Shown here: in pieces, positions 187-25,348 of the stretch
Numbering within the stretch: position 1 is the first letter of the stretch
How the letters are laid out: each line of letters starts with the position of its first letter
Sequence record: SRR20825019_232
DNA: 38,860 nucleotides
Direction: 5' to 3' (one strand)
Notes under the pieces: generated by a model
Seen by the model: only the letters and a program-made list of their open reading frames with translations
Databases searched by the model: none
Told to the model about the DNA's origin: nothing
Position numbers and translations under genes: made by a program

Positions 187-633
187 CTAAAGTCCTCCTA
201 AAATTGCATCCACTCCAAAAGTGAACTTTGATGGAGAAACGGTTTCGCTTTCATGGATAACATTACTTGGATCAGAAGCACATATATGAACTCCACCGTT
301 AAAATAATCATCGTAATATACCGCATCTTGCATTATATATAAATGCGTAGAATTTGATCCATAAATGCGAATTTTCTTGTTGTTGATTACAACACCTCTT
401 GCTATGGGAATATTAGCCGTTAAATTCACTGAATTTCCTTCATCCAATGACACAGTTGGTCCTACGTTAATGTAAGTGAATCCATCCAAGGTGTAATCTA
501 TTTCTAAACGAACAGAAATACAACCATCAGATGCCGTTGAACCACTGTGTTCAACTAATTGGTAAATAGTCGTTACTTGCGAGTAAGAAAATGCAGTAAC
601 GCATAGTGTAAAGAATAAAATTAATGCTTTCAT
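187..633 (-). CDS. secreted hypothetical protein
   Basis: 148 aa ORF with Sec-type signal peptide MKALILFFTLCVTAFSYSQ and a downstream terminator. Confidence 0.75.
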   Translation of the reverse strand: MKALILFFTLCVTAFSYSQVTTIYQLVEHSGSTASDGCISVRLEIDYTLDGFTYINVGPTVSLDEGNSVNLTANIPIARGVVINNKKIRIYGSNSTHLYIMQDAVYYDDYFNGGVHICASDPSNVIHESETVSPSKFTFGVDAILGGL

Positions 634-808
634 GAAAAGTGGTTTAGTGAATTCTATTGAACTCAGGTTATGAGATAAAGATACATTTTATAAATTAATT
701 TAGAAACGCGAATGTATCAATTAACAATAATGATAACTCAAGCCTTATGTTTTTGAGAAGAGATGGCGAGTAAAACCAATTAGAATTTACGTAAGGAAAC
801 ATTTTCCG

Positions 809-3969: not shown

Positions 3970-6900
3970 ATGTCAATTACGGAAATAGCAGTTAAGCGTC
4001 CATTGTTGATTATTGTGATCTTTTTCACACTAATCCTCTTTGGATTCATAAGTTATCAAAGTCTAAACTACAATCTTCTGCCAAAATTTGAGGCGAATGT
4101 ATTGTCAGTTTCTACGGTGTACCGAGGGGCTTCGGCCGATGAGGTGCAAAGTTCAATCACCAAACCCATTGAAGATGCAGTTTCCTCAGTGGAAGGAATT
4201 GATCATATAAATTCTAATTCAATGGAAGGTGTTTCTGTGGTGATCATTCGATTAAAGGATGGAATTAGCACGGTTACTGCACAGTTGGATATGGAGCGGA
4301 AAATCAACCAGATGAAAGCATCACTTCCCGAGGAGGTGGATGATCCTGTTGTGAATCGATTTAACTCTGAAGAACTTCCTGTATTGCGATTAAGTGCTTC
4401 GGCAAATGCAAGTCCTACAGAGTTGTATGATATGGTGGATCAGCAAATTAAACCTTTGTTATCCAACGTTCCAGGAGTTGGAGCGATCAACTTAATCGGT
4501 GGAAATCAACGTGAAATTAAAGTTCAGTTTGACAACGATAAGATGGCGAGCTATGGAATTACAAGCTCACAAATCAATCAACAAATCGCAGCGTCCAATG
4601 TGTCGTATCCAGCGGGAAGCGTGGAAAATGATTCGAGAAGATTCACACTGAGATTGGATGAAAAGTTCAAATCTGTGGAGGATCTAAGTAATTTGATCAT
4701 TAGACAGAATGAAGATGGATCGCGTGTATTTCTGAGAGATGTCGCAACGATTTTCGACGGACAGACAGAGGATGAAATGGTCAACCGAATTAATGGTAAA
4801 CCTGGAATCGGAATCGAGATTATTAAGCAAGCGGATGCAAACTCTGTGAGTGTAAGTGAATTGGTGAAGGAGAAATTGGAAGATTTGAAAGTTCAATACT
4901 CTGAAAAGGGATTAGACTTTGAAATTGCCGTCGATCAATCACTGTATACGTTAGCTTCGGCAGATGCGGTAATGCACGATCTTTTGCTCGCGGTAATCAT
5001 CGTAGCCTTCGTAATGCTGCTGTTTTTACATAGTGTGAAGAGTTCATTCTTCGTCCTCGTAGCACTTCCTTCGGCAATGATTCCAACATTTATCATGATG
5101 TATGCGTTTGGATTCTCGTTGAACCTAATGTCGTTGATGGCACTTTCATTGGTGGTCGGAATTCTGGTCGATGACAGTATTGTAATCCTGGAGAATATTT
5201 TTCGACACATGGAAATGGGTAAAACCAGAATGAAAGCGGCACTCGATGGTCGTGCGGAAATTGGATTTACGGCAGTAGCAATTACACTGGTTGATATCGT
5301 GGTATTCGTACCAATGGCAATTAGCGGTGGAATGATCGGAAATATCTTGAGAGAATTTTCACTCGTGGTGGTATTTTCAACGCTCATGAGTTTGATTGTA
5401 TCATTTACACTCACACCATTGCTTGCTTCTCGTTTTGCTTCGTTGCCAAAATTATCTACAACAAGTTTGTACGGTAAATTTTTCCTTGGCTTTGAGAAAA
5501 TCGTTGAATCGATCAAACAAGGGTATGGAAAGCTTTTGACATGGTCTTTGGGACACAAAAGATATATTTTAATGGGCGTTTTTGCCTTGTTCGTTGGAGC
5601 GGTATCATTGGTTCCAGCTGGATTTATTGGAACAGCATTCGTGAGTCCAAGTGACAAAGGAGAACTTAACATCGCGATTGAACTTGCGCAAGGAACGTCG
5701 TTGAAAGAAACCAACTTGGCGGTGCTCAAAGCGGAAAAAATCGTAATGAAGCATCCAGAGGTGACGAAAGTCTTCACGAACGTCGGGACACAATCTGGAA
5801 ATGCATTGACAGGAGGAACGTCTACGAGTAATATTGCAGAGATTTCTATTCAAATGGTCGATAAGAAGGATCGCGAGATTTCTCAAGATGATTTTGGAGA
5901 ATTGATGAGAAATGAAATCTCTCAGATTCCAGGAGTCAAAGTAACGATCAAACCAACGGGGATCACGGGTAGTTCTGAAGCTCCGATTCAAGTGGCAGTG
6001 AAAGGAACCAACCTCGATGAAATTTGGGTAGAAGCGAAAAAAGTGAAACAGCTCATTCAGGAAACGGCAGGTACGGATTACGTTGAGTTTAGTACTAAGA
6101 ATCCACAAACGGAGATTGATATTCAACTAGACCGCGAGAAAATGAGGTTGGTTGGATTGAGTTTAACAGATGTTGGAAATAGCTTGCAAACAGCTTTCCG
6201 TGGGAACGATCAGTTGAAATACTCAGATAATGGAGAGGAATATGCGATCAATATTATCGCTGAAAAAGCAGATCGCCAAAACATTGATGATGTTCGGAAA
6301 GTTCAGATTAGAAATAATCAAGGAGCGATGGTTCAACTTTCGGAAATAGCAACTATTTCTGAAAAACTGGGACAAGCGGTACTTCAACGTTCAGATCGAT
6401 TGAATAGTATAAAAATTGATGCATTTGCAGTGGGTAGACCAGTCGGAACAATCACTCAGGATATCAAGGATGGAATTGCGAAACTCGATATGAATAAGAA
6501 TGTGATTATTGAATTTCAAGGGCAGGCAGAACAACAATCGGATGCGTTTGGAAGTCTTGGTTTGGCAATGATGATTGGATTCTTGCTAGTGTACTTAATC
6601 ATGGTAGCGTTATATGAAAGTGTGGTGTATCCATTCGTCGTTATGTTCTCTATTCCTGTGGCGTTAATTGGTGCATTTTTAGCACTTGCGCTCACGATGG
6701 AAACATTGAACATATTCGCCATTGTCGGATTAATCATGTTGATGGGATTGGTGGCCAAGAACGGAATTTTAATTGTCGATTTTACCAATCAATTGAAAGA
6801 GCAAGGTTACGAGTTGAAAGCGGCGTTAGTAGAAGCTGGGAAGGAACGACTTCGCCCAATTTTAATGACAACAATTGCGATGATCTTCGGGATGCTTCCC

Positions 6901-7110: not shown

Positions 7111-7138
7111 TGTTAGGTAGTAGTTTATAGTAAAGTAG

Positions 7139-7171
7139 AAGCCTGCTCGATTTTTTCGAGCAGGCTTTTTT
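7139..7171 (+). terminator. intrinsic terminator between convergent genes
   Basis: AAGCCTGCTCGA-loop-TCGAGCAGGCTTTTTT. Confidence 0.9.
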
Positions 7172-7216: not shown

Positions 7217-7822
7217 TTATTTTTCGCAGGTTCCTTGCTGAGCGATGCACGATGTAGGATTTCCAATAAGTTTATCCACTATTCGTCCAATTTTATAGGG
7301 TACACTGCTTGTCTTTTTCCCAAAGCCCAAGAAGCTTCTCTTATCGATAAACCCAATTTGATGCATGTATTCGTGCATTAGATGTGATGCATAACATTTC
7401 ACGTCGTTGTTCAGAATGAAGCACCTATGCGTTCGAGTGACCCGAGTAGTCATATTAGTCACGCCAAAATTATCGTTGTTCTTTTTTTTAAAGGGTGTAT
7501 CAAATACACTTAAACGAAAATTGAGTTCATCATCTTTCTCAGCGTTAATGTAGTTGTTGTGTCCTCCAACGAGCAGTTCATATATTTCCCCACTAGATAA
7601 ATGGTTGTTTCCGACGTTAAAATTCTCCTCGAGAACCATCTGCTTGAATTCGTTTGAATTAAGTGCTAGCTCGAGAATTTTTGCCGCTTCTTGCAGTTTT
7701 TGTTCACTAGCAAGATCAAATGTACTATCGGGTTGCATGTTAATGTGAATGCTCTGCTGTCCAAATGAAGATGGGTCAAAGGATAGAAATAGTAGAAGGA
7801 AAAGAGTGAATTTTTTAAGCAT
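7217..7822 (-). CDS. secreted metzincin-type zinc metalloprotease
   Basis: likely start MLKKFTLFLLLFLSF (signal peptide); HEYMHQIGFID matches HEXXHXXGXX(H/D); downstream SVPY. Confidence 0.75.
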   Translation of the reverse strand: MLKKFTLFLLLFLSFDPSSFGQQSIHINMQPDSTFDLASEQKLQEAAKILELALNSNEFKQMVLEENFNVGNNHLSSGEIYELLVGGHNNYINAEKDDELNFRLSVFDTPFKKKNNDNFGVTNMTTRVTRTHRCFILNNDVKCYASHLMHEYMHQIGFIDKRSFLGFGKKTSSVPYKIGRIVDKLIGNPTSCIAQQGTCEK

Positions 7823-7884
7823 GGTCATTATTTTTTCAGATGTGTAAATAAAATGGCAGATGTGTTTGAGTCTTGAATATAGTG

Positions 7885-9153
7885 CTATTTCTCTTTTCCA
7901 CCAATTACGTACGATATCCCGAACATAAGTCCTGGTTTCCATGTGGAAATCGTTGGGACATCAATAGATGCATTTCCAAGATTAATTCCAAGCTCGTATC
8001 CCGGAGAGAGAATGCGAGTCTGTCTAATTGCTGCACCAACGTTGAACCCAAATCTGCCATATTCTGTTTGGAATAAGGATGTGAAAAAGACAGAAAAATT
8101 AGGGCTAAGATTGTCTTGACCGTCTACAGGAACGCCAAGCCCAAGTCCAAAACCAACAAGTGCGTCATTAACTCTCCAAGTTCCGTTCATGTAGGTTCCG
8201 AAGGAGGGTTGAATGTTTGAAATTCGTCTACTGACAATAAGTGAATCCACGTTTTTAAAGGCATTATTGACTGAGCCATCTGTAATGATTACATGTGCTC
8301 CAACCGAACCACTCATTTTGAAATGATTCTTTGTAATGAACGTGTGATTGTAAGAACATACCAACTGTTTAGTACTTTTTTTATAAATGCTCACTTCTAT
8401 TTCAGTTTCTTCCTTTTTTGCTTCGAAAGGAAGAAATTTCTTAAATGAAATGGAGTTGATCATCTGCATAGTTTTGGAGAGTTGGTTTTTGGTTTCTCGT
8501 ATTGTTTCAGACAAATCAATCTCTATTTCTTTGCTCCCGTCCTCAGTAAAGGAACTTATTGAAGACCTGAAATTAGTTTTTAATTGATTCATTTCGAAGA
8601 CAAGTTCATTCAATTCTTCTTGAGTGGAGACAAGAGATAAGCGATAAAGAATGTTTTGAACTTCATCATTAGTATTTTTAATGGCATTTAGAAACTTCTC
8701 TTTTTCCCTTAGCTTCTTTAAATTAGTATCATCAAAAGGAGCTAAAGATTGTTCTTTTTTATCTTTTTCATTTTCTTCCTCCTTAATTTCATTTAAAGTA
8801 TTGTCACGTATTTTTTTTAAATTTGTATTACTTGCAAACGTTTCATCTTTCACTGGAGTTGTAATGTCAGAAAAATCTCCTCCATTACTATTAATGTTTC
8901 GTTCTAATTTGTTAAATACAATAGAATCCATCATAGGATTGTAGTTATTTACTTCAATCTGTAATGATTCACCTTTTGAAACATAACTTGTTTCTTTATG
9001 AAGAGTCGATTCTCCTGTTTTTGCATCAATGGTTACAATGTTAGTTTTTTCTTGGGGGCTTTCTTTAAACATTGAACACGAAGAGAAAAAGAGTGTCAAG
9101 GAAAGCGCAGAGCCTAACAAACTGAAAACGCGAATAAATATTAAATTTTTCAT
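7885..9153 (-). CDS. lipoprotein with helical middle and beta-rich (possible OM barrel) C-terminus
   Basis: lipobox LFFSSC (Cys26); charged helical segment; alternating hydrophobic/Gly strands such as VGFGLGLGV, FGFNVGAA, GLMFGISYV. Confidence 0.75.
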   Translation of the reverse strand: MKNLIFIRVFSLLGSALSLTLFFSSCSMFKESPQEKTNIVTIDAKTGESTLHKETSYVSKGESLQIEVNNYNPMMDSIVFNKLERNINSNGGDFSDITTPVKDETFASNTNLKKIRDNTLNEIKEEENEKDKKEQSLAPFDDTNLKKLREKEKFLNAIKNTNDEVQNILYRLSLVSTQEELNELVFEMNQLKTNFRSSISSFTEDGSKEIEIDLSETIRETKNQLSKTMQMINSISFKKFLPFEAKKEETEIEVSIYKKSTKQLVCSYNHTFITKNHFKMSGSVGAHVIITDGSVNNAFKNVDSLIVSRRISNIQPSFGTYMNGTWRVNDALVGFGLGLGVPVDGQDNLSPNFSVFFTSLFQTEYGRFGFNVGAAIRQTRILSPGYELGINLGNASIDVPTISTWKPGLMFGISYVIGGKEK

Positions 9154-9202
9154 GTGATATAGATTTATATCACAAATTTCCCTCTATCTAACTCTTTCTG
9201 CC

Positions 9203-9218
9203 TCACTACAATTAGTGA
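9203..9218. promoter_or_regulatory. putative NarL/LuxR regulator box TCACTA-N4-TAGTGA (copy 1)
   Basis: TCACTA-CAAT-TAGTGA, 22 nt upstream of the minus-strand -7-like GAAATTTG (9173..9180). Confidence 0.7.
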
Positions 9219-9241
9219 AACTCACCCAAAAACACCAAAAA

Positions 9242-9898
9242 TCACAAGTCAAAGCCCTTTACAATCCCTGTTTGGATCGCATAGCGGAAGATTCCAGCAG
9301 CGTTTTTCACATCCAATTTGCTCAAAATACTTTTCCGATGGCTGTTAATCGTGTGGGTGCTCAGAAACAATTCTTCGGCAATTTCAGCCGTGCTTTTCTC
9401 AGCTACAATTAGTCGTACAACTTCTTTTTCCCGGTCTGTCAATTCTATGCGTGTTAAGTCGGCAGTTTCACTCGTTTCGACAAATGAATCTAAGAGATTG
9501 TCCAAAATTTCCTTGCTGAAATAGCGTTCTCCGACGCACAAGGTTTCAATCGCTGAAAAGAGAATTTCTTTCCCTGAGTTTTTGAGAATGTAACCATCCG
9601 CCCCAGCAGCAATCAGTGTTTTAATGAACTCGGGACGGTTATACATGCTCAGAATCAGTATTTTTATTTCTGGATACCGCTTTTTTAGACTGCTCGTCAC
9701 TTCAATTCCGTCCATTTCAGGCATGTTAATATCCAAAATCAACACATCAATTTCTTCCGTTTCCTGTATTAGAGTTAAGACTTCATGCCCATCGCGCGCT
9801 TTGGCGACAATCTCATAGTTCGGTTCCATTTCGATGAGTACGGAAAGCCCGTCGAGGATTAACTCATGATCGTCTGCTATGATAATTTTCTTAGTCAA
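9242..9898 (-). CDS. NarL/FixJ (LuxR-HTH) response regulator
   Basis: REC motifs IIADDH, LDINMPEMDG and GYILK; LuxR HTH LTDREKEV...EIAEELFLSTHTINSHRKSILSKL. Confidence 0.95.
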   Translation of the reverse strand: MTKKIIIADDHELILDGLSVLIEMEPNYEIVAKARDGHEVLTLIQETEEIDVLILDINMPEMDGIEVTSSLKKRYPEIKILILSMYNRPEFIKTLIAAGADGYILKNSGKEILFSAIETLCVGERYFSKEILDNLLDSFVETSETADLTRIELTDREKEVVRLIVAEKSTAEIAEELFLSTHTINSHRKSILSKLDVKNAAGIFRYAIQTGIVKGFDL

Positions 9899-11786
9899 TT
9901 TCGGGGAGATTAAAGGTAATTGTATGATGTGTTCCTTTTTCGGTAGTCAATTCATAGCTACCTCCGAGTTTGGCAACGCGACCCTGGATGTTTTTAAGCC
10001 CCATTCCTTTAGTAATAGAAGCAGGGTGGAAGCCATTTCCATTGTCAGAAATCGTTAGATGAATGGTATTTCCTTTCTGAACCAATTTCGCGGAAAGTAG
10101 TGAGGCATTCGCATGTTTGAGGGAATTACTGAATGCTTCCTGAATAATCCGATACACTTGAATTTCTACTTCGGAGTTGAAGCGCTGGTCCTGTGCCTTG
10201 ATGTCGATATTCACGGTCAAATCACTCGCTCCTTCGATGGTTTCTTTTAAATCGCGCAATGCCACGAATAACCCAAATTTTGAAAGTGCTCCTGATACCA
10301 AATTATGGGAGATTTCTCGGGTGTCTTTAATCGCTTTGTCCAATAATTGATACGCTTTTACATGCTTCGGGTCACTTTGAGAGGATTGCACAGGCGATGT
10401 TGCTTCAAAATACATTTTTGCTGCTGAGAGTGTGCTTCCAAGTCGATCGTGCAGATCTTCCGCAATGCGTTTTCGTTCCGTTTCTTGTCCATCTAACATT
10501 GCTTCAATCGATTTTAGCTCTTGATTAACGAGCAACGAACTAATTTCCTGGTTGTGGGCTTCATGTTCGCGTTTTCTGCGCAGTCGTTGAATGTATTGAC
10601 GTTGGAAAAAGAAGGCGATTAGTCCGATGAGTAAAATTCCTGCACCAATGATAATGCTCGTGAAGATGTCCTTTTCGGCCTTGGATTGCGCAATTTCGGA
10701 TTGCTGTTCCAGAAGTTTTCGTTCTTTCTTCTCCGTATTGTATTGAATATTGAGTTCTTCAATTTTTGTACGCGTTTTGGAATCCGAGATCTCCCGTTTT
10801 AGATCGGTCACTTTTTCAAAGTAAAAAAGCGCTGAATCTGCATTTCCCATTTCTTTGTAGAGTTCATATAAATATTGATTCGCAGTAATTCGGTAATCAG
10901 TTAAATTACTTTGTTGAGCGAGCGTATCTGCCGATTGCAAGAGTTTCTTAGATTGTTCGAATTCGTCACTCCAAAGAATTCCGGCAATATTAATATTGAG
11001 GTTCACCAGTTGTTTGTTTTGAGTGTATTTTTTGAAGTAATTGCTGAGCTCCGTGTACCTTTTTAATAGTTCTTTATTCGCCGAGAGATCACCATTTTCT
11101 GCAGCTATTTCGTATTCAGCGATCAACAGATTCATTTCAGATTCTCCGTAGTATTTTTCTTTATGGGTTTCAGGCGTCCATGCGTAACTCAATGAGAAAA
11201 AATCAATAGCTGAAGGGTATTCATACAAACAAAAACTACAAGAACCCAAACTTTGATAGGCAATTGCAACGTTTACCGAGTCTTTGTTTCTTAAAAAGGT
11301 TTCGAGTGATTTTTCAACATTGTTTTTTGCTTTGAGAAAATTTCTGTCTGCGTTCTCGTAATCTTCCTCATCCTCGCGTAGCTTACCAAGCGCCAAATAA
11401 CTATTTCCAATACTCAAACTCGTGGAAGCTGCCCAAGTGCGCTCATCTAAATGCTCTCTCAGTCGAAGTGCCGAATAAAAGGACGCCAGTGCATTGCCCC
11501 ATTGTGCTTTTTTCTGCAGTGCGACTCCTTTTCCATGATATCCCTTTGCAATGACCGAGTTGTCCTGCGCTTTTCTTCCATATTGAATAGCCAATGTTGC
11601 GTAGTGAATGGCCGAATCTGCGTGCACATCGAAGTATTCCTTAGCTATCATTGCGGATATTTCTCCTTTTTTCTGGGCTGTGGAAGCTTTCGTTAATTGT
11701 TGTTTGAGTTGAGAGATAGAATCCTGTTGCGCAGTGCCCAAAAGCGCGAGAAGCAGAAAGAGAAAAAAGAGTGAGCAACTTCGCAT
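9891..11786 (-). CDS. TPR-containing sensor histidine kinase (HisKA_3)
   Basis: signal peptide, extracytoplasmic TPR-like repeats, one TM, ERKRIAEDLHDRLG H-box, NSLKHA / DNGNGF / GMGLKNI ATPase boxes; overlaps the regulator by 8 nt. Confidence 0.93.
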   Translation of the reverse strand: MRSCSLFFLFLLLALLGTAQQDSISQLKQQLTKASTAQKKGEISAMIAKEYFDVHADSAIHYATLAIQYGRKAQDNSVIAKGYHGKGVALQKKAQWGNALASFYSALRLREHLDERTWAASTSLSIGNSYLALGKLREDEEDYENADRNFLKAKNNVEKSLETFLRNKDSVNVAIAYQSLGSCSFCLYEYPSAIDFFSLSYAWTPETHKEKYYGESEMNLLIAEYEIAAENGDLSANKELLKRYTELSNYFKKYTQNKQLVNLNINIAGILWSDEFEQSKKLLQSADTLAQQSNLTDYRITANQYLYELYKEMGNADSALFYFEKVTDLKREISDSKTRTKIEELNIQYNTEKKERKLLEQQSEIAQSKAEKDIFTSIIIGAGILLIGLIAFFFQRQYIQRLRRKREHEAHNQEISSLLVNQELKSIEAMLDGQETERKRIAEDLHDRLGSTLSAAKMYFEATSPVQSSQSDPKHVKAYQLLDKAIKDTREISHNLVSGALSKFGLFVALRDLKETIEGASDLTVNIDIKAQDQRFNSEVEIQVYRIIQEAFSNSLKHANASLLSAKLVQKGNTIHLTISDNGNGFHPASITKGMGLKNIQGRVAKLGGSYELTTEKGTHHTITFNLPEID

Positions 11787-11844
11787 TGCAGTGAATGTTG
11801 GTTTTACTCACTCAATCTACTAAAAGTTATTGGAATATAATCTT

Positions 11845-12207
11845 TTACATACCTCCGCCGCCATTGCTTACAGTCGTGCTTGTACGGCGCTTTCTTTTTG
11901 TTTTGGTACCGTTTTCCGTTGCGCAGTATATCATAAGATATTTATTTGTTAGATTTATGTTTGGTGGACAGTAGGTAGAACCTGGAAATCTTAGCTTTGA
12001 AGGTTCAGAACTGAGAGGATTCTCCTCAACTCGAATCGTCAATGCATAATGTTCTGAACTATGATTAGTCTTTTCATCGTCTGGAGGAGAAAGAAAGGGC
12101 TTTTGCCCCACTTTAAGGTCTCCATCTGGATTATCAATGTAAACAACCAATTCTAATTGATCGTCTCCATTATTCTCAAATTGGTATTCAATATCATACT
12201 TGCTCAT
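11845..12207 (-). CDS. hypothetical protein, beta-rich, with basic and Gly-rich C-terminal tail
   Basis: 120 aa ATG ORF with AT-rich translation initiation region, 24 nt downstream of the caspase gene. Confidence 0.75.
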   Translation of the reverse strand: MSKYDIEYQFENNGDDQLELVVYIDNPDGDLKVGQKPFLSPPDDEKTNHSSEHYALTIRVEENPLSSEPSKLRFPGSTYCPPNINLTNKYLMIYCATENGTKTKRKRRTSTTVSNGGGGM

Positions 12208-12231
12208 AATTATTTATTTTTTGGTTTGTAA

Positions 12232-13074
12232 TTAAAGAAAAGGCGGGAATTGTTCTGAAATCTTCGTGTGTTTATGTCCTTGTACATAGTGCCATTGAGC
12301 CGAATGGACTGGGGCTTTTCTTTCTTTGGACAAAGAGTTCTTAGTCAATTCACGGTTGAGCTCATCAAAAAAATTAGAGAGGTCGGCTTTTGGATTGAGC
12401 TTTTGAAAAGCGCTTTGAAAAGCTAAAGAAAAGTAAGTTTTTGATGTATCTCCTGGAATTATCTGTGTTGTTTCATTTTTGGCCGTTGAGGATATAATTA
12501 CAACAGACGGAGCTATTGAGTGGTGCATTGGATAGCCAGAATGATGTAATAATGGATTGTATATGTCTTGATATTTAGACCAAAATATTTCATCTATTCT
12601 CTTTTTTAGCTTTTGATTTCGCGACTCCATAGCCCCAGAATTACAACTATCTGAGATAACGATAAGTTGGACTCCTGGTTTAAAATCTTGAGCATATTTC
12701 CATAGTTCAAAATGAAACATAACGCGGTCCCATAATGCCCACCCTCTATCTTTATTTTTTGTGTTTTTTAAGAATTTGGCATACTCTTCCTTTACCGGAA
12801 CTGTGTGTCCGCAAAAAGATAACACAAGTAAATCCCCGTCTTCTAGCTCACCTTGAAAATGTATCAATTGTTTTATGAGATTTTCAGCTTTGGCCTCTTT
12901 GTTCACTAGGATGCCTTTAGGGTAGTCCTCAAAACCTAATTTCTTAAAAAAATTGTACATCTCTCTTGCAACGTGGGGACCCGCAGAGAATGGTAAGTCA
13001 ACGTCATAGTGACCTATATCGACTGTGGTTAACCCAATGTTTATCGCATACCTCTTTGGTTTTCTCTCTTCCAT
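12232..13074 (-). CDS. caspase-family (peptidase C14, metacaspase-like) protein
   Basis: YAINIG N-terminal strand, GDLLVLSFCGH (His90) and LIVISDSCNSG (Cys144) dyad motifs. Confidence 0.85.
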   Translation of the reverse strand: MEERKPKRYAINIGLTTVDIGHYDVDLPFSAGPHVAREMYNFFKKLGFEDYPKGILVNKEAKAENLIKQLIHFQGELEDGDLLVLSFCGHTVPVKEEYAKFLKNTKNKDRGWALWDRVMFHFELWKYAQDFKPGVQLIVISDSCNSGAMESRNQKLKKRIDEIFWSKYQDIYNPLLHHSGYPMHHSIAPSVVIISSTAKNETTQIIPGDTSKTYFSLAFQSAFQKLNPKADLSNFFDELNRELTKNSLSKERKAPVHSAQWHYVQGHKHTKISEQFPPFL

Positions 13075-13127
13075 AATTTATTAGTTTAGGATTTCTCCAA
13101 ATCTACCCCAATCATTTCGTTATCAGC

Positions 13128-13143
13128 TCACTACTTCTAGTGA
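13128..13143. promoter_or_regulatory. putative NarL/LuxR regulator box (copy 2), serving divergent promoters
   Basis: TCACTA-CTTC-TAGTGA; 22 nt from minus-strand TAGATTTG (13098..13105) and 22 nt from plus-strand TAACTTGC (13166..13173). Confidence 0.7.
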
Positions 13144-13198
13144 AAGTGAAATCGACAAAAACATGTAACTTGCGGAATAATCTTTTAAATCAACTACT

Positions 13199-13771
13199 AT
13201 GAATACTATTCAAATCATTTCAATCTTTCTAGCGATTGTATGCGCTGGACTTATTTTGTATTTCGGGATAAAAACAGACCTTCTCAGGGAAAAATCAACA
13301 GACACAGAAAAGGAAGGATGTTATAGCTTTTCTCGATTTCAATTTTGGTTATGGACATTAATCATTTGTCCAGTATTTGTTCTTTTTTGGGGATTTAGCG
13401 GTGACAACCCAGATATTAATGTAACAGCTCTTATTTTACTGGGTATTCCCGCAACGGTCACTATTACTTCGTCCGTAGTCGCGAATACGCACGAAGATGT
13501 GCTGCGAAAACAGCAACCAACGGGAGATCTAGAACTCAAGAGATACAGAGAAGGAGGCGCTTTCTGGACGGATTTGTTGACGGACGACAAAGGTCAATTT
13601 TCTATTGCGCGCTTACAAAATCTAATTTTTACGTTCGTTTTTGTAGTAATTTATGTTTCGATGTTCTTTGGAAGCAAAATGACTGCGTTTCCTGATTTCG
13701 AAGACAAAACATTTATCCTCATGGGAATTTCTTCAACGGGATATGTTCTTGGAAAAGCAGTGAAAAAATAA
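13199..13771 (+). CDS. multi-TM membrane protein with internal duplication
   Basis: about 5 hydrophobic segments; repeated (Y/F)SxxR(F/L)Q...T...PD...IL(L/M)GI unit. Confidence 0.85.
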   Translation: MNTIQIISIFLAIVCAGLILYFGIKTDLLREKSTDTEKEGCYSFSRFQFWLWTLIICPVFVLFWGFSGDNPDINVTALILLGIPATVTITSSVVANTHEDVLRKQQPTGDLELKRYREGGAFWTDLLTDDKGQFSIARLQNLIFTFVFVVIYVSMFFGSKMTAFPDFEDKTFILMGISSTGYVLGKAVKK

Positions 13772-13791: not shown

Positions 13792-14580
13792 TTAATGCTT
13801 TTCCGCGACTATTTTTTTGATAGAAATCAAATCTGAAATGGTGTCCCAAAGAGAAATTCGTTTTTCGAGAGATTGTTTTGCCACGGTGAGAGTTTCAGAC
13901 CATTTTTCGTCATCCTCGCCGCATAATTCAGCGATCATTTGAAGTGAAAGTGGGCCGTGCTCATCTCCATCTAGTTCAATGTGTCTTTCTAGGTAGTAAA
14001 CGAGTTTATCGCAGCGTACATTTTCATTATCTGCGCTTTTTAGAATCTCGATGAACATATCGGGAATCACATCTTCTCTACCGAAGGTAAATGCCGAAGC
14101 GATCAAATGAGTGTGATTCGTTTCAATAATTGAAAAAGAAAATTGTACGAAGTCAGACACTTTGGGGTCAATTTCTAGCTCATTTAAAGCGTCAGTAACG
14201 GTTTTTCCAGCACTGATCAGCGATATGAGTTGTTCGATGTGAGTTGTGTTTGCCCCAATTTGCGACATACTTTCCAGGTACATCTCGAAGTGACTTTTTG
14301 CCTCACCAAGTTCATTGATATCACTTTCCTCACCGTGAACAATTTCATTTATAAACCGTGCGAGTGTTGGATTTTTTACGGGAGTCCATGGGATTTCAAC
14401 GTTCGTCAGTTTCAGTTGCAAGGCCTTTAGAAGAGACATAAAGTCCCACACGGCAAACACGTGGTTCTCCATGAAGGTTTTTATATCGTCAACATTGCTT
14501 AAAACGCTGTAAAGTCTATGTTTTCTCAATTGATCTCTCAATTCAGAAATTTCATTTTCAATCGTCGATATTCTAGTCAT
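13792..14580 (-). CDS. DUF3050 family (heme-oxygenase-like) protein
   Basis: [38 protein letters not shown] and [15 protein letters not shown] motifs. Confidence 0.9.
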
Positions 14581-14673: not shown

Positions 14674-15213
14674 TTAACTTGTTGGGAAATGACGAATTCC
14701 ATTGAGAACATATAACTCTTTATTCGAGATTATTGCTTTATCATCTTTAATCACTTTTCCATCTTCATGAACCTCCCAAATCCCGTCCCTATCGCTAAAA
14801 TCGAGATAAACACCGCTTTCAAAACGAATAATATCGTCTCCCCAATAATCTTCTTCTTTGAAATTAATACCTTGATCATCTAGTATTTCTTTCACTCTTT
14901 TTCTTGTCAGATCCCGATTAAGAGTTAAAAACCAGGTGTCAACCTCTATTCGATCATTCTTGAATAATATCATCTCTGCATGGTTAGAACAATCAGCCTG
15001 AAGATGGTCATTCTGAATCGAATTTAAAATTTGGGTATCCGTATAGAAGAAGAATTCATACCAGCCATAGAATAATCCAGTAGAACCTGATCCAAAGTCT
15101 TGATCGGCTTCTGGTTCTCCCAGTAATTGAATTACTTCACTCTTGGCCATACCTATTTTTACAGGTCCAAAATCTCCAGTTAGAGCGAATTTTTCGAGAT
15201 ATATTGTTTCCAT
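14674..15213 (-). CDS. acidic hypothetical protein
   Basis: 179 aa ORF with GPVKIGMAKSEVIQLLGEP motif. Confidence 0.75.
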   Translation of the reverse strand: METIYLEKFALTGDFGPVKIGMAKSEVIQLLGEPEADQDFGSGSTGLFYGWYEFFFYTDTQILNSIQNDHLQADCSNHAEMILFKNDRIEVDTWFLTLNRDLTRKRVKEILDDQGINFKEEDYWGDDIIRFESGVYLDFSDRDGIWEVHEDGKVIKDDKAIISNKELYVLNGIRHFPTS

Positions 15214-22385: not shown

Positions 22386-24413
22386 ATGGAAAAATACACC
22401 AATGATTTAATTAACGAAAGTTCACCTTATTTACTTCAACATGCGCATAATCCAGTGAATTGGGTAGCGTGGTCGCCTGAAGTGTTTGAACGTGCTGAAC
22501 GAGAGGACAAATTGGTGTTAATCAGTGTGGGTTATTCCGCTTGTCATTGGTGTCACGTAATGGAACATGAGAGTTTTGAAGACGAGGAAGTGGCAGCGTT
22601 AATGAATAAGCACTTTATCAACGTAAAAGTAGATAGAGAAGAACGACCAGATGTGGATCAGGTGTACATGACCGCAGTGCAATTAATGACTCAGCAAGGT
22701 GGTTGGCCGCTTAATTGTTTTACAACTCCGGATGGAAGACCTGTTCACGGTGGAACCTATTTCCCAAAGGAACAATGGATGCACATTTTACGTTCGTTGG
22801 AGCACATGTACTCAACGGATAAAGCGAAAGTGCTCGAGTTTGCTCAGAACGTATATGAAGGAGTTCAAGCAAGTGAGTTGATAGAAAAACCCGCTGAATA
22901 CAATGAGTTTTCTGCGACAAAGTTGACAGAGTTGATCCAGCGTTGGTCAAAGAACTTCGATCAGAATGACGGAGGGAATAGTCGAGCGCCGAAGTTTCCT
23001 TTGCCAAGCAACATAGATTTTTTATTGGATTACGGAATCAGATCCAAGAACAAATTGGCGTCAGATCATGCGTTGCTCACATTGGATAAAATGGGATTGG
23101 GTGGAATCTACGATCAAATTGGTGGTGGCTTTGCGCGCTACTCGGTGGATATGCTTTGGAAAGTTCCACATTTCGAGAAAATGCTTTACGATAACGGTCA
23201 ATTATTGAGCAGTTATGCCAAAGGATTTCGAATCAATCAGAAGCCGATGTACAAGAGAATTGTTCAAGACACGGTGAACTGGCTTGAACGTGAAATGCTT
23301 GATGAATCGGGGGCGTTTTATTGTGCGCTTGATGCTGACAGTGAAGGTGTAGAAGGAAAGTTTTATGTTTGGACGGAAGCTGAGCTAAAGACATTACTTG
23401 AAGATGATTTCTCGTGGGTAAAGGAATTATATCAAGTCAATCAACGTGGTTATTGGGAAGTGGGGAATTACATTTTGCTTCGCGCTCAAGGTGATGAACA
23501 GTTTGCGAAGAAAAATGGATGGGAAATGACCGAGTTCGAATCCCAGTTGAATCGAGTGAACCATCTTCTTTTATCTGAACGAAAAAGACGAATCCGTCCT
23601 GGTTTAGATGATAAATGCTTGACTTCTTGGAACGCGATAACAATCAAAGGTCTGTGCGATGCTTATTCGACTTTTGGAGAAGATCAATACCTTTTCTTGG
23701 CACTCAAGAATGCTCGCTGGATCAAGAATACTCAATGGAAAGAAGATGGAAGTCTCTGGCGAAATTTCAAAAAGGGAAAATCTTCAGTCACTGGTTTTCT
23801 AGAAGATTATTCACATGTGATCTCGGCGTTTTTAGCACTTTACAAAATTACATTCGATGAAGAATGGCTTCTCGATGCAAAGCGTCTAATGCAATATACG
23901 TTGGATCATTTTCATGATGAGAATTCACAAATGTTCTTTTTTACAGATGAATCTACAGAGTTGATTGCACGCAAAATGGAACTGAATGACAACGTGATTC
24001 CCGCAAGTAATTCTGTAATGGCGCTTAATTTATATGAACTGGGACATTATTTCCGCAAAGATGCGTGGCTAGAAATTTCACGTCAAATGTTGGCAAATGT
24101 CTACGATGGAATGGAAATGTATGGATCTGGTTACTCAAATTGGGGAATGTTATTGAATCGCGAAGCACTTGATTTCCATGAAGTGATTGTAATTGGTGAC
24201 AATGCAAAAGAGTTAGTTCGACAATTGAGGAAAGAAGCAATTCCGGAGGTGCTTTTCGCGGCTTCCAAATCTCAATCTGAATTACCCATATTTGAAGGTA
24301 AGATTGCACAACAAGAAACGATAATCTACGTTTGTAAACAAGGCGTGTGTCAACTTCCAACTGCGGATGTAAAAGAAGCGATCGGGCAGTTATCCAATTT
24401 GAACTATGGATAA
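22386..24413 (+). CDS. thioredoxin-domain YyaL/SSP411-family protein
   Basis: [35 protein letters not shown] and [10 protein letters not shown]; promoter TACCTTTG at 22373..22380. Confidence 0.95.
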
Positions 24414-24463
24414 GATTTTTAAGTCGAATTATTAAACGGAATCATTTTTGTTTCTTTTGCATT

Positions 24464-25348
24464 GTGAAATTATTGACACTTATTATTGTTGGATTATTTT
24501 CGAGCATGTCTTACGGACAAGTGCTGGATAATAGAAATGGAGAAGCCTTTACGGATGTCCCATTCTTTAACTCAGATTTTATTAAAACGAATAGAATAAA
24601 ACGTTTCAACGCGTATTACGTTTACAAGAAGAAAGGCGACGTAATGCGTGATACGGAGTACAAGAATGTATACGAGTTTGACGAGCAAGGAAATCTGAAA
24701 TCAAGCTTCGAAACACGACAAGACGATGGAACGAAAGATACTATTTGGAACTTATACAGTTACGATCGACAGGGAAATCTTGCGAGACATAGAAAAACAG
24801 ACCTCGATGGTTACACGACGGTTGAGTATGTGTACGATTCTCTCGGAAGAGTGATTAAAGAACGTTTTCTGAGAGAAATTGATTCAGTGAATAATGAAAT
24901 TGTTCGGTCTTTGTTGTTTAATGAAGAACGAATCGAATATGCGCAGTACGACCGACAGTTAAAACGAACGCGATACAATAATTACAATCTTCCTTACCTC
25001 GATGAATTCTATAATTACAACGAATTGGGTTACATGGTTGAGCGAGAGGAGCGGATTAAAATGACTTCTACTGTTTATTCTTACGCTTATGAGTACAATG
25101 AGACTGGAAGGTTGGCGGCAATTCGTAAAACGAGTAACCGAAGCGAAGGCGTATTGGAAGAAATGAAATTCAAATACGACGATCTCGGGAACTTAATTGA
25201 AAAACACATTTACCGTGATGGAGAATTTACAACTGATGTACAAATTGTCTATAATAGTCAAACAAAATTGCTGTCGTCCGTAATTACACGACAAGTGAGT
25301 ACAGGCTTTCTAATCGTTCTTCGCTTTAGTGAATGCGATTTCTTTTGA
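24464..25348 (+). CDS. secreted YD-repeat-like protein
   Basis: likely GTG start giving a signal peptide; repeats YEFDEQGNL, YSYDRQGNL, YVYDSLGRV, YEYNETGRL, FKYDDLGNL. Confidence 0.75.
   Translation: MKLLTLIIVGLFSSMSYGQVLDNRNGEAFTDVPFFNSDFIKTNRIKRFNAYYVYKKKGDVMRDTEYKNVYEFDEQGNLKSSFETRQDDGTKDTIWNLYSYDRQGNLARHRKTDLDGYTTVEYVYDSLGRVIKERFLREIDSVNNEIVRSLLFNEERIEYAQYDRQLKRTRYNNYNLPYLDEFYNYNELGYMVEREERIKMTSTVYSYAYEYNETGRLAAIRKTSNRSEGVLEEMKFKYDDLGNLIEKHIYRDGEFTTDVQIVYNSQTKLLSSVITRQVSTGFLIVLRFSECDFF

Follow-up and report, generated by a model that had tools for sequence, protein, structure and literature searches.

A predicted small beta protein accompanies a TPR sensor kinase, a NarL/LuxR regulator and, in some loci, a caspase-like protease in an undescribed Flavobacteriales module

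The 38,860-nucleotide (nt) stretch of DNA from sequence record SRR20825019_232 (hereafter, the window) carries, between positions 7,217 and 13,771, a two-component system whose tetratricopeptide repeat (TPR) sensor kinase and NarL/LuxR response regulator lie next to a 120-amino-acid (aa) protein and a caspase-like protease. We compared five loci (the window; L001, from genome G002; L002, from genome G001; and one locus each from genomes G426 and G451), and the comparison establishes a real and undescribed module that is built from known kinds of parts and is both more compact and less uniform than the seven genes of the original prediction. Its core consists of an operator, TCACTA-N4-TAGTGA, the small protein, the TPR kinase and the NarL/LuxR regulator, that is, three or four genes plus variable cargo. 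The module is rare, of marine type and belongs to the Flavobacteriales (Crocinitomicaceae-like). We give an even chance to the interpretation that it is positively autoregulated, that the small protein acts as a cytoplasmic third component and that the metacaspase-like enzyme, where present, processes the arginine-rich tail of this protein.

All seven open reading frames (ORFs) that had been proposed to form a contiguous set were confirmed at their coordinates in the window, as were the terminator to their left and the convergent gene to their right. Four of them run on the minus strand in the order caspase-like protease (12232-13074, 280 aa, the first gene of the operon in the window), small protein (11845-12207), sensor kinase (9891-11786) and response regulator (9242-9898), and Pfam recognized only three of the seven proteins: the regulator, the kinase and the protease. 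The regulator combines a receiver (Response_reg, PF00072, 2.1e-27) with a GerE helix-turn-helix (PF00196, 3.4e-16), both above cut-offs, and has the recognition helix HTINSHRKSILSKL; the kinase matches TPR_12 (4.8e-12), HisKA_3 (PF07730, 1e-8, 36 bits against a cut-off of 24) and HATPase_c (PF02518, 4.6e-10). The domains of both proteins are those of a NarL/LuxR-class two-component system. The best similarities in NCBIfam were to MctR, NarL and UvrY for the regulator and to MctS, UhpB and LiaS for the kinase core, neither protein reaching an equivalog cut-off in that collection, and the N-terminal TPR part of the kinase gave a weak FimS match (2.5e-7) well below the family cut-off. Since a hydropathy scan found a signal-like leader (residues 1-24) and a single transmembrane segment (residues 372-397) in the kinase, its TPR domain of about 350 aa is predicted to be extracytoplasmic, in the periplasm, in line with the sensing role first suggested for it. 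The small protein and the caspase had no hydrophobic stretch in such a scan, and both are predicted to be cytoplasmic.

The window contains exactly two copies of the palindrome CACTA-N4-TAGTG (0.03 expected), and none of 100 shuffled windows contained two or more copies. Operator 1 (CACTACAATTAGTG, 9204-9217; extended minus-strand form TTTCACTA-N4-TAGTGA) is located 51-64 nt upstream of the ATG of a lipoprotein gene, while operator 2 (CACTACTTCTAGTG, 13129-13142) is common to two divergent promoters, lying 55-68 nt from the ATG of the caspase operon and 57-70 nt from that of a membrane-protein gene. A -7-like box stands 23 nt downstream of the operator at each promoter: GAAATTTG (9173-9180, minus strand) for the lipoprotein gene, TAGATTTG (13098-13105, minus strand) for the caspase operon and a weaker TAACTTGC (13166-13173, plus strand, 4 of 6 positions) for the membrane-protein gene. 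Two sites therefore serve the three promoters at which a shared palindrome had been predicted. A separate third site, before the kinase gene, did not hold up: the look-alike at about 11806-11826 agrees by eye in 9 of 12 half-site bases, a poor match, and has no counterpart in the homologous spacer of L001.

The same arrangement recurs in other genomes. L001 mirrors the window: one of its palindromes (795-808) stands 57-70 nt upstream of the ATG of the caspase gene, and the other (4785-4798) 51-64 nt upstream of the gene that follows the regulator. In the whole 5.4-Mb assembly of G002, TCACTA-N4-TAGTGA is found only at these two places in the module, compared with no sites for a reversed control. 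G426 and G451 each have two copies of the operator just upstream of the small gene. We examined the spacing of -7 boxes at 16 intergenic sites taken in both orientations (32 in all), allowing offsets of 10-39 nt and a match of at least 5 of 6 positions to TAnnTTTG, the Bacteroidota -7 consensus. A box of this type was present exactly 23 nt from the operator core in 12 of the 32 orientations, and every other offset had at most one case, a geometry compatible with an activator that occupies the -33 region. The regulators of the four operator-using loci are 57-67% identical and share the recognition helix HTINSHRK(S/N)IL(S/N)KL, whereas the L002 regulator is only 33-35% identical to the others, has a different helix and is without the TCACTA-N4-TAGTGA operator; thus the operator co-varies with the recognition helix across the five loci. 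The recurrence of the operator, with the same distances to start codons and -7 boxes, in three other genomes that share this helix bears out the view that a local regulon is tied to the two-component system. The positive feedback suggested at the outset is plausible as well, because the operon has the operator in front of its first gene. Two candidate operators in G001 were rejected, namely GGGGAG-N6-CTCCCC upstream of the L002 caspase, the sole other copy of which is a terminator hairpin between convergent genes, and a single TCACTA-N4-TAGTGA site inside a coding region. At the start of contig G451:C40 (L112, 133-146), the upstream operator copy is accompanied by a perfect TAGATTTG box that faces outward, off the contig, and a divergent gene beyond the contig start probably belongs to the regulon.

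Comparison of gene content defined which parts of the module are conserved. A locus scan with one genome per species and a nine-sequence caspase alignment found L001 and L002, which share with the window the order caspase, small protein, TPR kinase, regulator at a caspase identity of only 31-33%; their kinases of 621 or 620 aa align with the window kinase over its full length (37% identity for L001 and 30% for L002). The loci of G426 and G451 contain the small protein, the kinase and the regulator, in this order, without a caspase. The small protein, kinase and regulator trio is accordingly present in all five loci and the caspase in three, to which two fusion proteins are added; in caspase-bearing loci that have an operator, the caspase sits between the operator and the small gene. 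The caspase is dispensable, because it is missing from G426, a single contig of 3.85 Mb that keeps the trio; the best caspase-profile hit in this genome (E 2e-5) falls inside a 1162-aa frame, and G451 gave no caspase-profile hit. The expected co-occurrence of the seven genes was thus found in part, in that the caspase accompanies the kinase and regulator in three independent loci, but the lipoprotein and the membrane protein were not found in the four genomes searched (G001, G002, G479 and G110; G426 and G451 were not searched), and these two proteins are window-specific cargo. Together with the absence of the caspase from G426, the variability of the cargo and the location of most homologues of the seventh protein, a HExxH protein, at other places, this argues against the seven genes as one conserved system.

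By sequence comparison, it is the small protein, and not the caspase, that accompanies the kinase and regulator most faithfully; the original prediction had passed over it. Among 401 genomes of the family of G002, only G002, G426 and G451 have a kinase-sensor orthologue (E<1e-40), the sensors of G426 and G451 both scoring better than that of G002 in the sensor-half search, and the small protein was detected in 3 of 386 genomes of the family sample, exactly the three with this orthologue. An order-level search for the small protein matched 3 of 381 genomes, one match being weak. The metagenome regulator scan met 533 regulator relatives, and none of 80 metagenome loci with LuxR regulators 33-47% identical had a caspase, small-protein or zincin homologue; as a background control, 38 of the 80 have at least 3.3 kb upstream of the regulator.

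Members of the small-protein family are 116-147 aa long (125 or 147 aa in L001 and L002; 116 aa in G426 and G451), and the five members examined matched no Pfam family at E<=10. A search by words that used only the 120-aa protein gave no match, a word-indexed collection of 5.8 billion clusters yielded only five small proteins, and named matches are each a 'hypothetical protein' from metagenome-assembled genomes of Crocinitomicaceae or Flavobacteriales. The AlphaFold model of the window protein is weak (mean predicted local distance difference test score, pLDDT, 57.7) and depicts a monomer with seven strands, no helix and a tail that is disordered from residue 100 (pLDDT 26-38) and ends in ...KRKRRTSTTVSNGGGGM; the model is too uncertain to name the fold. 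This tail is among the better-conserved parts of the protein across loci whose caspases are only about 30% identical. In an alignment profile built from seven sequences, every tail keeps a cluster of lysine and arginine followed by a conserved valine; Arg108 is invariant in the five caspase-linked tails, while the two caspase-less tails keep a basic cluster instead, and a GGGG stretch after the tail is found in four of the five caspase-linked proteins and in neither of the two caspase-less ones of known context. In P0155, a distant relative of 126 aa (E 8.7e-4), the tail (RSRRRTNTTVSN...) differs little from KRKRRTSTTVSN of the window, and it continues as VGIELVKG and not as GGGG.

The protease is a member of Peptidase_C14 (PF00656, 4.4e-10, 40.1 bits against a cut-off of 21.4). 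His90 in the motif FCGH, Cys144 in the motif SDSC and Asp142 are invariant in 27 aligned sequences, and the closest solved relatives by profile are GSU0716 (3bij, 3.7e-32), metacaspase-4 (1.7e-6) and other plant and yeast metacaspases. Metacaspases cleave after arginine or lysine at P1, and the aspartate two residues before the catalytic cysteine, which has a role in their S1 pocket, corresponds here to Asp142, aligned with the DSC of metacaspase-4. When 1.84 billion representatives were searched exhaustively with HMMER, 1042 hits at E<=0.001 were obtained, of which only about 25 were full-length relatives, and these form a subfamily with motifs of its own, FHFE(L/I)W and WHYxQGH. In two of them, P0006 (419 aa) and P0012 (401 aa), the caspase is fused to a C-terminal small-protein domain, basic tail included, so that gene fusion appears to link the two proteins. 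The subfamily is sparsely distributed: of 401 genomes from the order of G001, five had a caspase hit at E<=1e-20 and only G001 itself had a member of the subfamily; two of 401 genomes from the family of G002 had a hit at E<=1e-25; and a metagenome scan with the caspase alignment found no relatives. A complex prediction for the caspase and small protein, in which alignments were not used, scored 0.00 with a mark of 0.34 and provides no evidence either way. A run guessed to be RNA contained short pieces identical to the zincin, kinase and caspase genes that are not readable as expression.

Side observations on the protease concern a second, GSU0716-like caspase subfamily in G479 and G110, which is also encoded beside a HisKA_3 kinase and a LuxR regulator and has weak matches to the PADLOC 'caspase' model (6e-10 in G479 and 5e-8 in G110). 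The G479 locus (L012, G479:C52, 7708-12500) encodes a kinase with TPR repeats, and after its caspase come a 181-aa membrane protein and an 842-aa secreted protein, with a C5 DNA methylase nearby; at the G110 locus (L010, G110:C78, 193-3172), a gene for a 115-aa membrane protein stands before that of the caspase. Neither the membrane proteins nor the small ORFs beside these caspases qualified as module homologues, being unrelated to the 190-aa membrane protein and the small protein of the window. The pairing of a caspase with a two-component system may be a wider theme in Flavobacteriales.

From these data we propose how the module might work. The TPR domain would detect a ligand in the envelope or outside the cell, probably a peptide or protein, and the kinase would phosphorylate the regulator, as is usual for their families. 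A regulator dimer would then bind the palindrome, which, ending 23 nt ahead of the -7 box, overlaps the -33 region, and would presumably activate rather than repress transcription, switching on both the module's own operon, as feedback, and the adjacent cargo genes. The strict co-occurrence of the small protein with the kinase and regulator suggests that it serves as a third, cytoplasmic component of this switch. In some loci, including the window, the metacaspase-like protease is placed before the small protein or fused to it and would most likely cut the tail at the conserved arginine cluster, thereby resetting or triggering the activity of the small protein. Whether the module is more specifically a two-component system with a built-in proteolytic step, in which a co-transcribed metacaspase-like protease clips the arginine-rich tail of the third component, is doubtful, and we offer this form of the proposal tentatively. 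If it were true, caspase-type cleavage would turn a reversible phosphorelay into an irreversible decision, such as commitment to stress or death or the release of a signal, and prokaryotic caspase signalling would be wired directly to an envelope sensor and not to a STAND or CRISPR sensor.

Several points weigh against this interpretation. The signalling role given to the small protein is drawn from its co-occurrence in five loci, and a fold search with its model returned only generic beta-sandwiches (best Z 4.3). Cleavage after arginine is predicted by analogy with the specificity of metacaspases. The genomic context of the caspase covers the window, L001 and L002, with about 22 further representatives (P0003-P0027, including both fusions) outside it. 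L002 has no recognizable operator, hence autoregulation is not supported there, and some of the operator sites in G426 are due to chance, because the 11 sites matching the pattern in that genome compare with 5 for the reversed control.

An alternative that we regard as unlikely is a transcriptionally licensed death module, in which the small protein would be a latent toxin, a Pepco/Trypco-like pore or mini-gasdermin, unleashed when the caspase removes its C-terminal tail, and the two-component system would set the timing, for example upon envelope attack or contact with a phage or competitor. Adjacency of the caspase and small protein, with fusion in two cases, is what such a module would look like, and so are the size of the small protein, its predicted all-beta structure and its charged disordered tail. 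They match the description of Pepco, a 117-aa protein encoded beside serine or cysteine proteases that forms a pore after its charged C-terminal tail of 2 kDa has been removed (Evans et al., bioRxiv 10.1101/2025.11.14.688446). In G426, moreover, operators with a -7 box precede a TIR+receiver protein and an AriA-like ATPase. Nevertheless, the small protein tracks the kinase and regulator and not the protease, as G426 illustrates; the absence of any Pfam match among its five members and of a helix in its model is at odds with membership of such families, Pepco being a stable beta-barrel oligomer with a basal amphipathic helix; Trypco2 (PF19631) was not found in G001, G002, G479 or G110; neither the caspase nor the small protein matched PADLOC; and the window is an ordinary chromosome rather than a defence island. 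If the small protein were nonetheless a protease-activated toxin, protease-effector logic would extend to transcriptionally licensed systems.

The tendency of operator-near cargo to consist of exported hydrolases (the window zincin; C70/C39-like, M4 and S8 peptidases and a DUF900 hydrolase in G426) would also be explained by an ordinary two-component system that controls exported proteases and envelope proteins for feeding or surface remodelling, with the caspase and small protein as unrelated passengers, and TPR-HisKA_3 kinases with LuxR regulators are indeed common in Bacteroidota, as the number of regulator relatives met attests. We consider this quite improbable, given that in all five loci the small gene separates the kinase gene from the operator, that it occurs only in genomes with this kinase lineage, that caspase-small protein fusions exist and that no caspase or small gene accompanies the 80 other regulators. 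Still less probable, to the point of being remote, is a peptide loop like that of agr quorum sensing, in which the small protein would be a precursor whose C-terminal peptide is freed by the caspase, exported and sensed by the periplasmic TPR domain. The agr system has a membrane-embedded AgrB-type processing and export protein and a short precursor peptide in the order agrB-D-C-A, which the order protease, precursor, kinase, regulator parallels; TPR domains commonly bind peptides, and an operator before the operon would give autoinduction. The tail, however, is among the better-conserved parts of the small protein, whereas signalling peptides usually diverge; the supposed precursor carries a folded domain of about 100 aa; there is no conserved exporter, the 190-aa membrane protein having been found only in the window; and the caspase is missing from two of the five loci. 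The autoregulated switch with the small protein as third component is our preferred reading.

The cargo near the operator differs from genome to genome and consists mostly of exported hydrolases or envelope proteins. In the window, it comprises a 422-aa lipoprotein (7885-9153, minus strand; a hydrophobic leader followed by a cysteine) downstream of operator 1, the HExxH protein that follows it and, divergently from operator 2, the 190-aa membrane protein with four hydrophobic stretches (13199-13771, plus strand). L001 instead has an unrelated outer-membrane-like gene and, divergently, a homologue of the HExxH zincin (219-734, minus strand). This homologue reads REYLQTLGFKH, both histidines of HExxH being lost, and is probably an inactive pseudo-enzyme, as far as the motif indicates; a perfect -7 box (TAGGTTTG) precedes it 23 nt from the shared operator.

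For the HExxH protein, the most extended ORF is 7217-7942 on the minus strand, and 7217-7828 (about 203 aa) is likelier, because translation from the ATG at 7828 would yield a normal signal peptide (MTMLKKFTLFLLLF...) and leave 56 nt between this gene and the lipoprotein gene, whereas the start at 7942 overlaps the end of that gene by 58 nt. Its motif, HEYMHQIGFID, conforms to the HEYxHxIGFx(H/D) kept in four of five family members and to the extended metzincin-type pattern HExxHxxGxx(H/D), and the metzincin label of the original prediction derived from this motif. The predicted structure (pLDDT 75.6) does not sustain that label: Foldseek returned nothing at E<=0.001 (best E 0.16), and an exhaustive structural search (VIA) ranked aspzincins on top (1eb6, Z 10.1; 2x3a, Z 9.8; 1g12, Z 9.3; over 134-136 residues), about 2 Z units above the next group, with metzincin structures (ulilysin, matrix metalloproteinases, ADAM-8, archaemetzincin) at Z 4.0-4.4 only. 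The protein is thus predicted from its model to be an exported zincin-fold peptidase, nearest to aspzincins in fold. Zincin homologues were present in G001, G002, G479 and G110, mostly at unrelated places, and the HExxH protein is variable regulon cargo outside the conserved core.

In G426, a DUF900 hydrolase gene diverges from the small gene; a secreted C70/C39-like peptidase, the TIR+receiver protein and the AriA-like ATPase are each preceded by a site whose -7 box is correctly spaced, and sites with a weaker or no -7 box are near M4 and S8 peptidases and a pair of DsbA and extracytoplasmic function (ECF) sigma genes. At about 133.9-139.8 kb of G426:C1, two of these sites, each with a perfect TAGTTTTG box 23 nt off, lie in front of genes for a TIR_2+receiver protein (L116, 1-1365, minus strand; 3.8e-25) and an AAA_15 ATPase resembling AriA of PARIS (L118, 3-920, minus strand; PADLOC 2.6e-16), which hints at defence-type genes among the targets of the G426 regulator. 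Each of the two caspase-less genomes has an operator site near an orthologous ECF-type sigma gene (L132 in G426 and L115 in G451, 179 and 178 aa), which may be a conserved distant member of the regulon, and in L111 another ECF sigma gene (191 aa) follows the regulator gene.

The surroundings of the module in the window are those of an ordinary Bacteroidota chromosome, with a resistance-nodulation-division (RND) pump, glmS, panC, panD and a protein with a type IX secretion system tail, a flat G+C content throughout and, in a survey of gene content, no defence-island context. A hairpin terminator with a 14-bp stem and T-run (7137-7169) separates the module from the convergent RND pump gene and forms its left boundary; its right boundary is a convergent DUF3050 gene (13792-14580, minus strand, 2.9e-100), beyond which a 179-aa protein of no family is encoded (14674-15213, minus strand), neither of these two genes having an operator site. 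Elsewhere, a 333-aa ORF with an RHS-repeat match (24347-25348, plus strand, 1.7e-7) overlaps the end of a DUF255/thioredoxin-like gene; it is possibly a polymorphic-toxin fragment.

This layout corresponds to no system in PADLOC or NCBIfam, in agreement with the original statement that no named system has it. The HExxH, lipoprotein, 120-aa and 190-aa proteins had no family match in Pfam, NCBIfam or PADLOC; against PADLOC-DB 2.0, the window gave only weak hits of CARF-HTH type to the helix-turn-helix of the regulator, and the caspases and small proteins of L001, L002, G426 and G451 had no match. Searches of full-text literature found no description of an operon of caspase, small protein, TPR kinase and LuxR regulator, with the supplements of the Pepco preprint, which possibly list homologues, not covered. 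Bacterial caspase-like proteases are known mainly as executioners coupled to phage sensors, and the control and substrates of stand-alone bacterial caspases, such as the 280-aa enzyme here, are a largely open field for which the module provides a compact testable case: it offers a candidate substrate that is fused to the protease in relatives, a transcriptional input through the TPR kinase and LuxR regulator, and an operator of strict geometry. In addition, an unnamed family of small proteins appears to be the constant third partner of a two-component system in Flavobacteriales, and the operator offers a way to predict regulons in marine Bacteroidota, a group with few known regulator sites.

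Each part has known counterparts. The caspase shares the Peptidase_C14 domain and the His-Cys dyad in GH and DSC motifs with bacterial orthocaspases and metacaspases (GSU0716/3bij, plant MC4, yeast Mca1), but represents a small distinct subfamily with a dedicated small-protein partner. The HExxH cargo protein is like aspzincins (MEROPS M35: deuterolysin, AsaP1 and peptidyl-Lys metallopeptidase) in predicted fold and HExxH helix, yet has no Pfam or NCBIfam match and a motif that is metzincin-like as written; the second aspzincin motif, GTxDxxYG, is not evident in its family, which conserves VPYxIG. Compared with agr, the protease is a soluble C14 enzyme without a hydrophobic stretch and not of the membrane-embedded AgrB type, and the would-be precursor, at about 120 aa and with a model that is mainly a beta domain, is not a short peptide. 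With Pepco/Trypco, the module has in common a protein of about 117 aa without an enzymatic motif, a protease neighbour and a charged unstructured C-terminal tail, which is the protease target in Pepco and a predicted target here. The differences are that the small protein has no sequence match to Pfam families, Trypco2 included, that the protease lacks a fused sensor, that defence-island context is absent from the window and that the small protein, which adjoins or is fused with the caspase in three loci and two fusions, stays with the two-component system in G426, where no protease of this family is present; the two resemble each other in logic and not by membership. The closest relatives as a whole are NarL/LuxR two-component systems (NarXL, UhpBA, LiaSR and the TPR-bearing FimS of Porphyromonas), which have the same receiver and GerE regulator and the same HisKA_3 and HATPase_c kinase, and the palindromic operator is likewise as for dimeric GerE-type regulators. 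What sets the present module apart from them is an operon that always has an extra small beta protein and often a caspase, and an operator that is lineage-specific both in sequence and in its fixed 23-nt distance from the Bacteroidota -7 box.

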